Virus record (IMG/VR): IMGVR_UViG_3300034375_006485
DNA from: an uncultured virus (IMG/VR IMGVR_UViG_3300034375_006485)
Taxonomy: Duplodnaviria > Heunggongvirae > Uroviricota > Caudoviricetes
Reading direction: 5' to 3' (one strand)
DNA: 20,000 nt
The translations under genes were made by a program, and so were the position numbers. Under the pieces are notes generated by a model. The model searched no databases and was not told the origin of the DNA. It worked only from the letters and a program-made list of their open reading frames with translations. The number at the start of each line of letters is the position of its first letter. The first letter of the stretch is position 1. Positions 2,712-15,562 of the stretch are shown here, one piece after another.

Positions 2712-3517
2712 TTAGATAACTCCTGAATAAACTCGTAGTCTCTATGCTTTCCAGCATGATTTTCAAAGGCAATAAACATATCTGGATTATTTTTATAAAC
2801 ATATGCCATAGCACTTTGCTCATTGTTGATTAGATTGTTAGCGATCATTTTGTTTTGAAGGACATCATCTACAAGATCACAGAACTTACTCATGACTTCT
2901 GCTCCTCCACACCAAAGACCTCCCATTACCCACGTTCTACCATCCCACAAATCTTCTAAGGTATATGATTTAGCATTAACCAAATCTCCATAGTAAGACA
3001 TGAAGGTTTGTATTATAACATGGTCTTTGCAATCTAGCAATGTTTCCATGGCAGTCTGTGATGGATACTCCAAATCCATGCCAAAGAAAAATCTAGATAG
3101 ACCAGCATCCATCCACATAAAAAGTTCAGTATTAAAGGGATTGTCGGAAATAATCCGATTTACCCATCGAAACTTAGAATAGATAACTGAGTTATAAAGA
3201 GCTAGTTTACATTCTACTCTGTTGGGAGCTTGAACTTTTTCCTTAAAGTTATCAGAGTTTAAAATACCATCAATCTTCTCAGTTAAATGATAGTAAGGAA
3301 TATCTTCCAATGCTTGGGTGATTATCTTTGTAGGCAACCCTTCCCTACATTTTTCTACAAATGAAACAAGAGACTCTTCTACAAAGATTACCATCGGTCT
3401 GGTAACTTTTAGAGTTTCTTCAAACCAAGAAAGATATTCTTGAAACTTTCTACCATCTCCATCTTGTTCTCTATTGATATCATAAAGAGCAGTTACTATT
3501 GTGATAGAATCAGACAT
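2705..3517 (-). CDS. HtrL/YibB (WlaTC)-like glycosyltransferase-related protein
   Basis: TIVTALYDINRE N-terminus, NPFNTELFMWMDAG, NNEQ motifs; island context. Confidence 0.7.
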   Translation of the reverse strand: MSDSITIVTALYDINREQDGDGRKFQEYLSWFEETLKVTRPMVIFVEESLVSFVEKCREGLPTKIITQALEDIPYYHLTEKIDGILNSDNFKEKVQAPNRVECKLALYNSVIYSKFRWVNRIISDNPFNTELFMWMDAGLSRFFFGMDLEYPSQTAMETLLDCKDHVIIQTFMSYYGDLVNAKSYTLEDLWDGRTWVMGGLWCGGAEVMSKFCDLVDDVLQNKMIANNLINNEQSAMAYVYKNNPDMFIAFENHAGKHRDYEFIQELSKR

Positions 3518-4226
3518 GATATTTTGAATTATTTTTACTTAAATGAACAATCTTAGGTTCAAAATCACAGTATTGACCGAACATTTCTGGGTATGCAAAC
3601 TGTGGTCCTAAGACATTTGTATTATCTCGGTTTTCTATAAGAAACTTATTAAGGTGACTTTCATCATGCCACTGAGCAATTACATCATTATCTAAATCTA
3701 TTTGAACTCGACGATCGAGTTCACAAATAAGATTCATAATCTTTGAAGACTTTCCTCCCCATAAGCATCCTTGGAAATACACAGATAAATCATCATCCTC
3801 TGAAATGGCAGATGTAGATTTTTTATTCGTCTCAAACGCACCAAACTTCTGATTATGTGGGGGCATCTTAAGAAAATGGCAAGGATGATGAACACCAAAG
3901 AAATCTTTAGTATCATCAAAGAACTCTTCTTCAGTTACAGTATCTACAACTAAAGCATCCGCATCAATAAAAACAAACCAATCTGTTTCTGAGATTACAT
4001 CTTTTGCTTTTTGAATAATCTCAAATCTTTTTAGTGTGATATAAGGCCATTCAATATGCTCATAGTCATAGGTATTAATATCTTCAGGAAAATCTCCATC
4101 ACCATCAGTAAAAACTAAAAACTGTTTTTCGGTATTAGGCAAAAAATATTCATGAATATTTTCATAGTATCTGGGAAGAAAGTTTAAATACTTTCCTGTT
4201 CCAATAAAACAAATAGCAACTTTCAT
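3510..4226 (-). CDS. Glycosyltransferase family 6 (ABO-type alpha-1,3-Gal/GalNAc transferase family)
   Basis: IGTGKY, VFTD, FIDAD (DXD), YFQGCLWGG, WHDESHLNKF signature. Confidence 0.9.
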   Translation of the reverse strand: MKVAICFIGTGKYLNFLPRYYENIHEYFLPNTEKQFLVFTDGDGDFPEDINTYDYEHIEWPYITLKRFEIIQKAKDVISETDWFVFIDADALVVDTVTEEEFFDDTKDFFGVHHPCHFLKMPPHNQKFGAFETNKKSTSAISEDDDLSVYFQGCLWGGKSSKIMNLICELDRRVQIDLDNDVIAQWHDESHLNKFLIENRDNTNVLGPQFAYPEMFGQYCDFEPKIVHLSKNNSKYHV

Positions 4227-11778: not shown

Positions 11779-11925
11779 GTAGGTCTTTTCATGCACGCCA
11801 CTTGCTCTTTAGAGAAGCAAGAAACTCATATTAGGGTCATATGACTCCACCACACATTTTTGAGAGAAATGAGAAACTCCAGGGGTCAATGACCATCCCG
11901 ACCAGGATTTTTATAGACTCTCCAT
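11779..11925 (-). ncRNA. Structured cis-RNA, most likely manA RNA motif / CfrI-like (wcaG-like alternative)
   Basis: Non-coding, relatively GC-rich segment with two tandem modules (GTCA..TGACCC..GAGTTTC-stem-TTCTCT-AAA-stem-GTGG), directly 5' of a mannose-6-P isomerase gene and near tRNAs, the context described for manA RNAs. Boundaries approximate. Confidence 0.7.
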
Positions 11926-14351: not shown

Positions 14352-14424
14352 TGGAGAATAGCGGACTCGAACCGCTGACAGCCTGCTTGCAAAGCAGATA
14401 CTCTACCAACTGAGCTAATTCCCC
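14352..14424 (-). tRNA. tRNA-Ala(UGC)
   Basis: GGGGAATTAGCTCAGTTGGTAGAGTATCTGCTTTGCAAGCAGGCTGTCAGCGGTTCGAGTCCGCTATTCTCCA; G3:U70 pair present. Confidence 0.97.
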
Positions 14425-14452: not shown

Positions 14453-14481
14453 TACTGAATGTAAGGAACCAAAAGGTTCAG

Positions 14482-14552
14482 AGCGAAATACGGGATTCGA
14501 ACCCGTGACACCAACTTGGAAGGATGGGATGTTACCACTACACCAATTTCGC
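14482..14552 (-). tRNA. tRNA-Gly(UCC)
   Basis: GCGAAATTGGTGTAGTGGTAACATCCCATCCTTCCAAGTTGGTGTCACGGGTTCGAATCCCGTATTTCGCT; U discriminator. Confidence 0.95.
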
Positions 14553-14619
14553 ATTTGATGGAGTAAGTGTGATATATCTCATAAGGATATAACAGTGACT
14601 TACCCTCTATCACTTTTAT

Positions 14620-14648
14620 ATATTACACCAGTTCTTGGATATTGTCAA
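14620..14648 (-). promoter_or_regulatory. Sigma70-type promoter for the tRNA-Gly/Ala unit
   Basis: TTGACA (14648-14643), 17 nt, TAATAT (14625-14620) with a TG extension. Confidence 0.7.
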
Positions 14649-15115
14649 GTCCAAAGGTTATGGTCATATTCCCAGTGGCAATTTGGACATAATGGCATTA
14701 TGTTTTCCTTTGAGTTTATAACACTAATCATAACTTCTTCACTAAAAGAAGATATTGGTTTTATGTGAGCAATTTCTATATGTTTATTATATCCACATTT
14801 AACACATTCGGTAAATCCAAGTTTTTTTCCAAATGCTCTTGCTCGTGTTCTTACCAAAGCAAATGCTGAGGACTTGTGATGTTTTTCATATATTGCTTCT
14901 TTAAGGGTCATATCTTTTACTTCTCTATCTTTTAACCATATCAAATAGTGTTCTTTACAACGAGCACGATTTGCTGTTATTGCTTTTCCACAATCAATAC
15001 ATTTATGCTCTGGTTTTCTTTTAGGAACTTTTTTATTATTATAAGAAGCAGCACAACTTCTTCCACAAAATTTTGGATTTTTTGTTTCTACTTTACAAAA
15101 CAAGCACTTATTCAT
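14645..15115 (-). CDS. Free-standing HNH endonuclease with N-terminal zinc-binding motifs (putative homing endonuclease)
   Basis: CVKC...IEIAHIKP...N...NIMPLCPNCHWEYD HNH domain; N-terminal CLFC..FCGRSC and CIDC..RCKEH. Confidence 0.9.
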   Translation of the reverse strand: MNKCLFCKVETKNPKFCGRSCAASYNNKKVPKRKPEHKCIDCGKAITANRARCKEHYLIWLKDREVKDMTLKEAIYEKHHKSSAFALVRTRARAFGKKLGFTECVKCGYNKHIEIAHIKPISSFSEEVMISVINSKENIMPLCPNCHWEYDHNLWT

Positions 15116-15119
15116 AATG

Positions 15120-15158
15120 GAACCTTAAAGTTATTTTTATTTATAAACCTTAAGGTTC
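15120..15158 (-). promoter_or_regulatory. RBS-sequestering hairpin with T4 late promoter TATAAATA (15145-15138) in its loop
   Basis: GAACCTTAAGGTT / AACTTTAAGGTTC 13-bp stem (one G-U); the 3' arm contains AAGG 7 nt before the HNH ATG. Confidence 0.8.
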
Positions 15159-15164
15159 AAAAAA

Positions 15165-15447
15165 CGTCTCAGGAGGGACTCGAACCCCCGACCAACTGCT
15201 TAGCTTACCACTACGGATTTCCCCGCCATTTCTGTTTGTGGTCTGGACTTTCTCTTTACCATATCCTAAAAGGACTTAGGCACTTCCCGTCAAGTCTCTA
15301 CACCTTCATCTTACGATGCTTGGCTCGGGATTATCATAGTCTTAAGACTTTAGAGTTCCCCGAATTTGAGAAGTTACATTTATAAAGTTTCCCTTATAAA
15401 GCTCCTTTGTTAAAGGCAGATGCTCTTTCCAACTGAGCTACTGAGAC
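15165..15447 (-). tRNA. tRNA-Arg(UCU), split by a group I intron (exon 1 15447-15413, exon 2 15203-15165)
   Basis: Joined exons give the 74-nt cloverleaf GTCTCAGTAGCTCAGTTGGAAAGAGCATCTGCCTT^CTAAGCAGTTGGTCGGGGGTTCGAGTCCCTCCTGAGACG. Confidence 0.93.
15204..15412 (-). mobile_element. Group I intron (IC3, tRNA-Leu(UAA)-like), 209 nt, no internal ORF
   Basis: P AAATTCGGGGAA (15367-15356), Q AATCCCGAGC (15332-15323), R GTGTAGAGACTTGACGG (15303-15287), S AAAGAGAAAGTCC (15257-15245); P1 CUU/GAG with U-G at the splice site; P3 ACTTCTC/GGGAAGT; terminal G at 15204. Confidence 0.92.
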
Positions 15448-15533
15448 AAGAGACCTCCCTGTTTGTGCATCGTTGAGAGGCATGGGAGGGGTGAGACTTA
15501 TACGAAGTGTGGACCTTCGCTGCTCATAAGACA

Positions 15534-15562
15534 ATCATACCAGTTAAAGATTTGATTGTCAA
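15534..15562 (-). promoter_or_regulatory. Sigma70-type promoter for the tRNA-Arg unit
   Basis: TTGACA (15562-15557), 17 nt, TATGAT (15539-15534) with a TG extension. Confidence 0.8.

Follow-up and report, generated by a model that had tools for sequence, protein, structure and literature searches.

A candidate homing partnership between a group I intron and a free-standing HNH endonuclease at a phage tRNA-Arg gene

In the cyanophage S-PM2, the psbA gene carries a group I intron without an open reading frame (ORF), and Zeng, Bonocora and Shub reportedly showed in 2009 cleavage by F-CphI, the free-standing endonuclease with which this intron is paired. The endonuclease encoded by the tRNA-fMet intron of Synechocystis is said, by Bonocora and Shub in 2001, to be specific for the anticodon region. 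Here we describe a locus in a 20,000-nucleotide stretch (the window) of the uncultured virus record IMGVR_UViG_3300034375_006485 (IMG/VR), in which a group I intron that has no ORF interrupts the anticodon of a tRNA-Arg(UCU) gene and a free-standing HNH endonuclease gene follows on the same strand. We give about an even chance to the reading that intron and HNH gene form a collaborative (trans) homing unit within a cyanomyovirus tRNA cluster, a reading for which we infer cleavage, the cut site, splicing and biased inheritance from the sequences.

Collaborative homing is described in the available part of a 2014 review (PMC3984707), which places all phage introns known at that time in protein genes, despite the many tRNA genes of phages. 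It is the route that has been proposed for the fusion of ORF-less introns with free-standing nucleases into mobile introns, and it rests on very few cases, all of them in protein genes; the locus described here would apply the same logic to a phage tRNA gene. According to the accessible portions of the papers on phage T4, the free-standing HNH endonuclease MobE mobilises the nrdB intron, which has a defunct I-TevIII (PMC2790892), and segB, a GIY-YIG homing endonuclease gene, lies between tRNA-Arg and tRNA-Ile (PMC2330249, PMC2988022). SegB recognises a T-arm motif of many tRNA genes and cuts even one T4 tRNA gene (PMC2330249, in the part available). The literature searched, outside which lay most subscription journals, yielded no published account of a phage tRNA gene with a group I intron. 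An earlier interpretation of the window from its letters alone (the sequence-only reading) knew of no described tRNA version of such a partnership in cyanophages, and this agrees with the literature searched and with the available text of the 2014 review (PMC3984707).

The split tRNA-Arg gene and the HNH gene behind it

The tRNA-Arg(UCU) gene lies on the minus strand (c[15164,15448]) and was called by ARAGORN with introns allowed, which placed a 209-nucleotide (nt) intron after the first anticodon base; a default ARAGORN run overlooked the split gene. Since default tRNA finders overlook such genes, phage tRNA-Arg(UCU) genes of this kind may stay unannotated. The 5′ exon (15413–15448) ends in U34, the intron (15204–15412; ARAGORN i(37,209)) lies between anticodon bases 34 and 35, and the 3′ exon (15164–15203) begins with CUAAG. 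A U precedes the 5′ splice site (exon end ..CCUU), and the final base of the intron is a G (..AAG). Rfam matched Intron_gpI (RF00028) at 15222–15423 with 66.5 bits (cut-off 50, E = 3.6e-15), and no ORF of at least 40 amino acids (aa) lies on the intron's own strand, in agreement with the ORF-less group I intron that the sequence-only reading had recognised in the anticodon. In-silico removal of the intron restores a cloverleaf with a UCU anticodon, and the spliced sequence equals the uninterrupted tRNA-Arg gene of a viral contig, L114 (loci and contigs carry the prefix L), with which both exons are identical.

Across 17 distinct relatives, including the tRNA-Leu(UAA) intron of phage record LR756501, RNAalifold predicted 54 pairs, 24 of them with compensatory changes; the predicted pairs include the anticodon stem built by the two exons. 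RF00028 was also passed by nine of 10 related intron loci (the exception being L159) and was matched in none of the 10 loci classed as intron-less. Because the Rfam score lies above its cut-off and 24 predicted pairs covary, the intron is by prediction a real ribozyme gene. Over 151 nt, the window intron shares 72% identity with its counterpart in LR756501 (735 kb). That record (L148), of an uncultured phage, is unannotated, and its tRNA-Leu(UAA) gene at 1443–1733 contains a 205-nt group I intron. A search of annotated phage records matched 430, mainly via tRNA genes, and 80% query coverage was reached by none. Within the 40 matches listed, LR756501 and LR756503 were the only ones to match the intron and none covered the HNH gene, in a collection that possibly lacks the window's own record; the corresponding locus of phage S-SRM01 is without an HNH gene.

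Evidence of splicing was sought in the contigs of four runs, three of them RNA libraries (X1, X2, X4) and the fourth (X13) of a kind not known. RNA-library contigs are identical to the window over the leader, exon 1 and the first 110–124 intron nt (X1 record 5, X2 record 20), and over portions of the HNH gene. RNA-library contigs thus contain the unspliced junction, though DNA carry-over is possible; no contig of the four runs links exon 1 with exon 2 and also has window-specific flanks. The only exact 209-nt skip, in X13, was rejected as splicing evidence, since its shorter side spans 22 nt and any uninterrupted gene of the same sequence type (type A, defined below) would give that result too.

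The HNH gene (14645–15115, minus strand) encodes 156 aa. Its ATG lies 48 nt from the tRNA-Arg 3′ end and the gene is 88 nt from the intron, so that the downstream, same-strand placement of the sequence-only reading stands and its spacing of 49 nt is corrected by one. The protein matches the Pfam families HNH_2 (34.1 bits, cut-off 21) and HNH (22.6 bits, cut-off 21.4) as well as HNH families of PHROGs; Pfam detected HNH domains only and no GIY-YIG domain. Two N-terminal Cys-rich, zinc-ribbon-like units precede the C-terminal HNH domain, and both N-terminal Cys clusters are invariant across 23 relatives, as is a C-terminal set of four Cys, His, Asn and His (C104, C107, H112, N138, C143, C146, H147). 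An AlphaFold2 model has a mean predicted local distance difference test (pLDDT) score of 90.7. When compared with the PDB by Foldseek, it gave no match at E ≤0.001, the best being weak matches to the HNH domains of McrA (E 0.03) and Gme (E 0.06), and a profile search of PDB sequences yielded nothing better than E 0.66; these fold and profile searches identify no relative among the solved homing endonucleases.

Among 13 close relatives the ratio of nonsynonymous to synonymous substitution rates (dN/dS) has a median of 0.083 (range 0.025–0.17, 78 pairs), and the HNH gene is, by this estimate, under purifying selection. More distant matches include many decayed copies: 15 of the 32 examined are truncated C-terminal remnants right beside tRNA-Arg(UCU). 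Full-length relatives occupy one of two positions relative to tRNA-Arg(UCU), ~48–57 nt downstream or ~10 nt upstream. Because the tRNA-Arg(UCU) gene is the only neighbour common to the HNH relatives, the HNH gene is maintained and decayed copies occur, the pattern is that of a putative family of homing endonucleases linked with tRNA-Arg(UCU). A free-standing homing endonuclease gene is recognised by being present or absent at one fixed site of otherwise comparable loci, along with decayed copies, and the HNH gene displays both.

The spacer between tRNA and HNH gene folds into a hairpin (15120–15158, minus strand) that pairs GAACCUU.. with ..AAGGUUC, the latter covering the ribosome site, and holds TATAAATA at 15138–15145 in its loop. 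This hairpin, with AAGG in its 3′ arm, forms in 19 of the 20 distinct spacers that precede close HNH genes, and compensatory changes occur in two of its seven core pairs. Its loop invariably holds ATAAATA, as TATAAATA in 16 variants and as CATAAATA in three; the former we take to be the T4-type late promoter consensus. The late promoter and ribosome-binding-site hairpin that had been ascribed to the HNH gene are accordingly recovered as a conserved hairpin over the ribosome site with a late-promoter-like ATAAATA box. A late promoter placed within such a hairpin is the design of T4 I-TevI, I-TevII, I-TevIII and segB and of Aeh1 mobE in the available part of one paper (PMC2988022), and the arrangement ahead of the HNH gene matches that of I-TevI, segB and mobE. 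The hairpin would hold back HNH translation on early read-through transcripts, and the ribosome site would be freed on transcripts initiated from the late-type promoter within the loop.

Co-occurrence of intron and HNH gene among natural alleles

Loci were collected with three anchors, namely an exact 32-nt stretch of the 3′ exon, an exact 35-nt stretch of the intron core, and HNH proteins of at least 84% identity. We call the canonical tRNA-Arg(UCU) sequence found in the window type A, and the other, uninterrupted sequence type is called type B. The 32-nt exon stretch is common to 38 viral contigs, with or without the intron: 19 of these loci have both intron and HNH gene, 18 have neither, one has the intron only, and none has the HNH gene only. 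After removal of duplicates, 32 distinct type-A alleles divide into 14 with both, 15 with neither, three with the intron only and none with the HNH gene only (Fisher p = 1.5e-6, not corrected for relatedness). Among the 29 loci found through the intron core, 26 have the HNH gene (one cut by a contig end) and three do not.

The HNH-protein anchor recovered 52 loci (29 distinct) from viral and metagenome contigs. The HNH gene follows an intron-bearing tRNA-Arg in 40 of them, a tRNA with a 45–48-nt non-ribozyme insert at the loop position of the intron in six, and an uninterrupted tRNA-Arg in five (three distinct), all type B; one locus was unreadable. An HNH gene behind an uninterrupted type-A tRNA-Arg occurs in none of the 38 exon-anchored and none of the 52 HNH-anchored loci. 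The sequence-only reading had linked intron and nuclease at this locus, and the survey is consistent with this, with the HNH gene unaccompanied by the intron in 0 of 38 exon-anchored loci and 0 of 32 distinct alleles. Close HNH orthologs beside identical intron-less tRNA-Arg genes, which would have spoken against that link, were not encountered; the five loci (three distinct) with an uninterrupted neighbour carry a different tRNA-Arg type.

Type B differs from type A in the acceptor, D, anticodon and T stems, with a T-A pair at 31–39 where type A has C-G, and the anticodon loop is the same in both. An exon-anchored scan of 29 type-B loci found no intron, seven full HNH genes, one remnant and 21 loci without HNH. 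Since type B shares the loop and yet carries the intron in 0 of 29 loci, the spread of the intron appears to depend on DNA outside the loop, a pattern that would argue for protein-guided homing and against reverse splicing. One type-B locus (L150) has two HNH genes of the family, at about 150–570 and 701–1168, flanking a single tRNA-Arg; the upstream gene ends ~10 nt before the tRNA and the downstream gene starts 48 nt after it.

The six insert-bearing loci (L030, L031, L161 and L164–L166; for example L031 at 2834–2952) have a type-A-like tRNA-Arg whose insert lacks a ribozyme core, and the HNH gene behind it is intact at ~85% identity. The insert starts with a near-repeat of the exon end and could be an intron remnant or a repair scar. 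The remnant idea came from L167, which has a real intron in the same tRNA type; no convincing alignment of the insert to the intron was obtained.

In bacteria the type-A anticodon arm is the usual one of tRNA-Arg(UCU), found at ≥120 genome loci, and tRNA-Arg(tct) was called in 76 of the 80 loci fetched, one from a cyanobacterial metagenome-assembled genome (MAG). No HNH relative lies near tRNA-Arg in these 80 loci. If the type-A arm is the target, host tRNA-Arg genes would be cut too, a possibility that the sequence-only reading had raised. A match in Synechococcus WH7803 (L264, about 700–745) was rejected as a full host gene, as it covers only the 3′ two-thirds and received no ARAGORN tRNA call; this partial tRNA-Arg(UCU) looks like a duplicated tRNA end left beside an integrated element.

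A proposed homing cycle and its rivals

Comparisons between loci show that the block from tRNA to HNH gene is mobile between unrelated flanks. The flanks of the window have no blastn homology to those of 10 other HNH loci, in all of which the HNH gene is 85–89% identical to that of the window. In nine full-intron loci of those ten the tRNA with its intron is 88–90% identical; the matching segment in L031 is 76% identical over 15% of the window's, and L020 has none. A pair of loci, L011 and L026, traces the limits of the block: identity is ~40% upstream, 100% from the 5′ to the 3′ end of the tRNA, 75–90% through the HNH gene, and ~30% from ~70 nt past the HNH stop. The intron itself occurs in at least four unrelated exon backbones, with acceptor stems GTCTCAG, GGCTCAG, GTTTCGG and GGGCACG and anticodon stems CTGCC, CCGCC and CATCC. 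In two loci (L170, L171) an HNH gene of the upstream type lies directly before an intron-bearing type-A tRNA. Each intron-less allele is followed by DNA unrelated to that behind the others. In the viral contig L028, at 3491–3740, Rfam matched a permuted (two-piece) transfer-messenger RNA (tmRNA; 78.6 bits, and 71.1 bits for cyano_tmRNA) immediately downstream of the HNH gene.

Alleles with the intron only also occur. L130 shares 98.9% identity with the intron- and HNH-bearing L089 over tRNA and intron and 70–74% in the flanks, and the two are separated by a clean ~520-nt indel that holds the hairpin and the HNH gene. By eye, L130 and a further intron-only allele, L135, show possible footprints of HNH deletion.

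We propose that the HNH endonuclease cuts uninterrupted type-A tRNA-Arg(UCU) DNA of co-infecting phages at or across the 34/35 junction, whereupon repair by recombination with the donor would transfer a copy of the intron, and often of the nearby HNH gene too, to the recipient. Splicing of the ORF-less intron from the pre-tRNA would keep the tRNA working, and in DNA the intron would split the recognition site and so protect its carrier. The 34/35 junction is the likely target because the donor exons equal those of L114, an allele with neither intron nor HNH gene, and because the DNA downstream of intron-less alleles is unrelated between loci, so that within conserved sequence carriers and empty alleles differ only there. 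The intron may on this account serve as a DNA-level immunity device, the HNH gene being kept only where its own anticodon arm is split by the intron or a dead remnant, or where the tRNA-Arg is divergent; we advance this tentatively, as somewhat short of an even bet. The targets under the immunity proposal would be the bacterial-type tRNA-Arg(UCU) anticodon arms of rival phages, and probably those of the cyanobacterial host too. Stages of a homing cycle are found in nature: the empty site, the intron only, the intron with a nuclease 3′ or 5′ of the tRNA, a decayed nuclease and a decayed intron. If the proposal is true, they form a natural series for the origin of composite mobile introns, in phage tRNA genes that are said to lack introns. 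With dozens of natural alleles available, the prediction is directly testable, namely that the enzyme cuts intron-less type A and spares both intron-plus type A and type B.

Several observations weigh against so close a partnership. Between L011 and L026 the tRNA with its intron is 99.7% identical and the HNH gene 83%, which simple joint homing does not predict; more generally, main-clade introns 99–100% identical adjoin HNH genes only 82–92% identical, and breakpoints fall between tRNA and HNH gene and also inside the HNH gene. Because near-identical introns adjoin diverged HNH genes and breakpoints lie between and within the parts, the intron and the HNH gene appear also to move or recombine separately. 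Linkage may account for their co-occurrence, as the two are only 88 nt apart and tRNA, intron and HNH gene behave as one module. In a metagenome contig (L150), an HNH protein 100% identical in aa to that of the window is encoded beside an uninterrupted type-B tRNA-Arg, and therefore the intron is not always needed; the DNA of this contig matches the window at 99.2% over 1198 nt, including tRNA-Gly and tRNA-Ala, with a breakpoint in the hairpin before the ATG. That type B is immune through its sequence is an assumption. L034 has an HNH gene, 69% identical, directly next to an intron-less tRNA that departs from type A by one base pair in its anticodon arm. The P1 helix of the intron can be drawn, by eye, as 3 bp only, CUU with GAG including a U-G pair. 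Because SegB cuts a T4 tRNA gene, in the part of its description that was available (PMC2330249), strict self-immunity is no rule for such enzymes. The separate histories, the L034 case and the tolerance of SegB for self-cutting hold collaborative homing to about one half. The sequence-only reading has the anatomy right, and the comparative data agree with the partnership that it drew; movement of the whole block without a cut at the junction agrees with them too, and the parts are not always together.

Such movement of the whole block is the strongest competing explanation, in which the HNH endonuclease cuts elsewhere in or near the tRNA-Arg region, repair swaps the entire tRNA-Arg gene, and the intron is a passenger. 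The shared block ends sharply on both sides, at the 5′ end of the tRNA and ~70 nt beyond the stop of the HNH gene, HNH relatives lie up- or downstream of at least five different, mostly intron-less tRNA-Arg(UCU) sequences, and SegB recognises a T-arm motif (PMC2330249, as far as the available part goes), all of which this explanation accommodates. We nevertheless judge it unlikely: donor and susceptible exons are identical, so that the donor, too, would contain any target lying within one exon; the 38 exon-anchored and 52 HNH-anchored loci include no type-A recombinant with the HNH gene only, despite the breakpoints between tRNA and HNH gene and inside the HNH gene; and the loop stays interrupted even in alleles that have lost the ribozyme.

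The separate histories could instead reflect two independent selfish elements favouring the same conserved gene, the intron spreading by reverse splicing or ordinary recombination and the HNH gene on its own. Intron-only alleles (three of the 29 intron-anchored loci), the near-identical introns beside HNH genes at 82–92% identity, and the presence of the intron in unrelated exon backbones where the intervening 3′ exon was not co-transferred (L028, L159) are all compatible with independence. It becomes quite improbable once set against the HNH gene in 26 of 29 intron-anchored loci, the lack of HNH-only type-A alleles, and the 0 of 29 type-B genes with an intron, as reverse splicing needs the loop alone and type B shares it. 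That the nuclease chiefly serves the phage, cutting host tRNA-Arg(UCU) genes or promoting rearrangement and amplification of the phage tRNA array with mobility secondary, is very doubtful, since presence/absence polymorphism, like the frequency of truncated copies, is what marks out a dispensable selfish gene, even though the type-A arm is as common in bacteria as noted above (≥120 genome loci; 76 of 80 calls, including the cyanobacterial MAG), SegB-driven amplification of phage tRNA genes is reported in the available part of a 2026 paper, and the tRNA arrays next to the HNH gene differ greatly among relatives; such a role can coexist with homing.

The surrounding locus and comparison with known systems

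The window comes from a viral contig of 41.9 kb in IMG/VR, which CheckV estimates to be ~19% complete. Heme oxygenase and nrdA/nrdB are among the genes of the window, as is a cluster for sugar modification that has a wcaG RNA motif, and its best DNA matches are Synechococcus myoviruses. Because of this gene content and these matches, we assign the source to a fragment of an uncultured, cyanomyovirus-like phage, as far as sequence comparison goes. The wcaG motif (11787–11881, minus strand, 53.9 bits) lies just upstream of, and overlaps the 5′ end of, a mannose-6-phosphate isomerase-like gene, the first of the cluster, which also encodes a GDP-mannose dehydratase, an epimerase, an aminotransferase and several glycosyltransferases.

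A predicted strong sigma-70-type promoter, TTGACA-17-TATGAT (15534–15562, minus strand; TG-extended, 11 of 12 consensus positions), precedes the tRNA-Arg gene, and similar promoters lie upstream of tRNA-Arg in relatives. Behind it comes a 37-nt abiF RNA motif (RF03085; 15453–15489, minus strand; 53.8 bits, cut-off 37) as a leader directly 5′ of tRNA-Arg. The same motif is found directly 5′ of tRNA-Arg(UCU) in 10 of 20 related loci (for example L007 2632–2668, L020 2836–2872 and L086 1424–1460) and in phage S-SRM01, regardless of tRNA type, intron or HNH state. The available part of a 2025 preprint describes abiF-motif RNA as neutralising an AbiF toxin in the manner of a type III antitoxin, and a 150-aa ORF just upstream of the leader gave no Abi_2 match in Pfam. 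By analogy, a lytic phage could be using a promoter-driven abiF RNA as an anti-defence decoy.

On the other side of the HNH gene, a predicted promoter, TTGACA-17-TAATAT (14620–14648, minus strand; 10 of 12 consensus positions), serves tRNA-Gly(UCC) (14481–14552, minus strand), the next gene of the tRNA cluster, and tRNA-Ala(UGC) (14352–14424, minus strand). The TGA stop of the HNH gene (14647–14645) falls within the TTGACA −35 hexamer of this promoter (14648–14620), as the sequence-only reading had observed. After the promoter and before the next tRNA, a conserved leader, GATAGAGGGTAAG..CTGTTATATCC.., occurs in the window (14560–14625, minus strand) and in L098, L114 and L122, loci that are otherwise unrelated; it may be another structured leader RNA.

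The intron itself resembles the IC3 introns of bacterial and plastid tRNA genes, such as that of tRNA-Leu(UAA) ('Leu.3Ug'), in being small and ORF-less, in its position behind the third base of the anticodon loop, and in its U at −1 and terminal G. The IC3 subgroup takes in introns of tRNA-Leu, tRNA-Ile, tRNA-fMet and tRNA-Arg(CCU), and the signs of a possible kinship of the window intron with it are the 72% identity to the phage tRNA-Leu(UAA) intron and the shared loop position only. A 2020 preprint by Williams lists 21 bacterial tRNA-intron settings, and unlike the classical bacterial Arg intron ('Arg.5Ug'), which occupies another loop position, the window intron lies in a phage tRNA-Arg(UCU). 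The arrangement shares with the tRNA-fMet nuclease of Synechocystis the anticodon region of a tRNA gene as its proposed DNA target, the difference being that the latter is intron-encoded and belongs to a bacterial gene, whereas the HNH gene lies outside the intron and in a phage.

Among phage systems, segB offers a close positional parallel, as a free-standing nuclease gene right after a phage tRNA-Arg with a late promoter and a hairpin over the ribosome site. SegB has tRNA genes as its targets and drives the tRNA region's inheritance, the role that we propose for the HNH endonuclease; unlike SegB, the latter is not a GIY-YIG enzyme, and the SegB system has no intron. MobE is similar in being a free-standing HNH endonuclease whose gene adjoins an intron-bearing gene, and it moves an intron that does not encode it, although the T4 nrdB intron has a dead endonuclease ORF and interrupts a protein gene, whereas the intron here is ORF-less and lies in a tRNA anticodon loop. 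In the pairing of F-CphI with psbA in S-PM2, as in our reading, the intron insertion site is the proposed nuclease target. The two differ in that the target is a protein gene there and a tRNA gene here, and in that cleavage has reportedly been shown for F-CphI and is proposed here. They differ also in the nuclease, an HNH_2-type HNH enzyme with zinc ribbons here and an enzyme with an Endo VII motif in F-CphI, according to the available part of PMC6083498.

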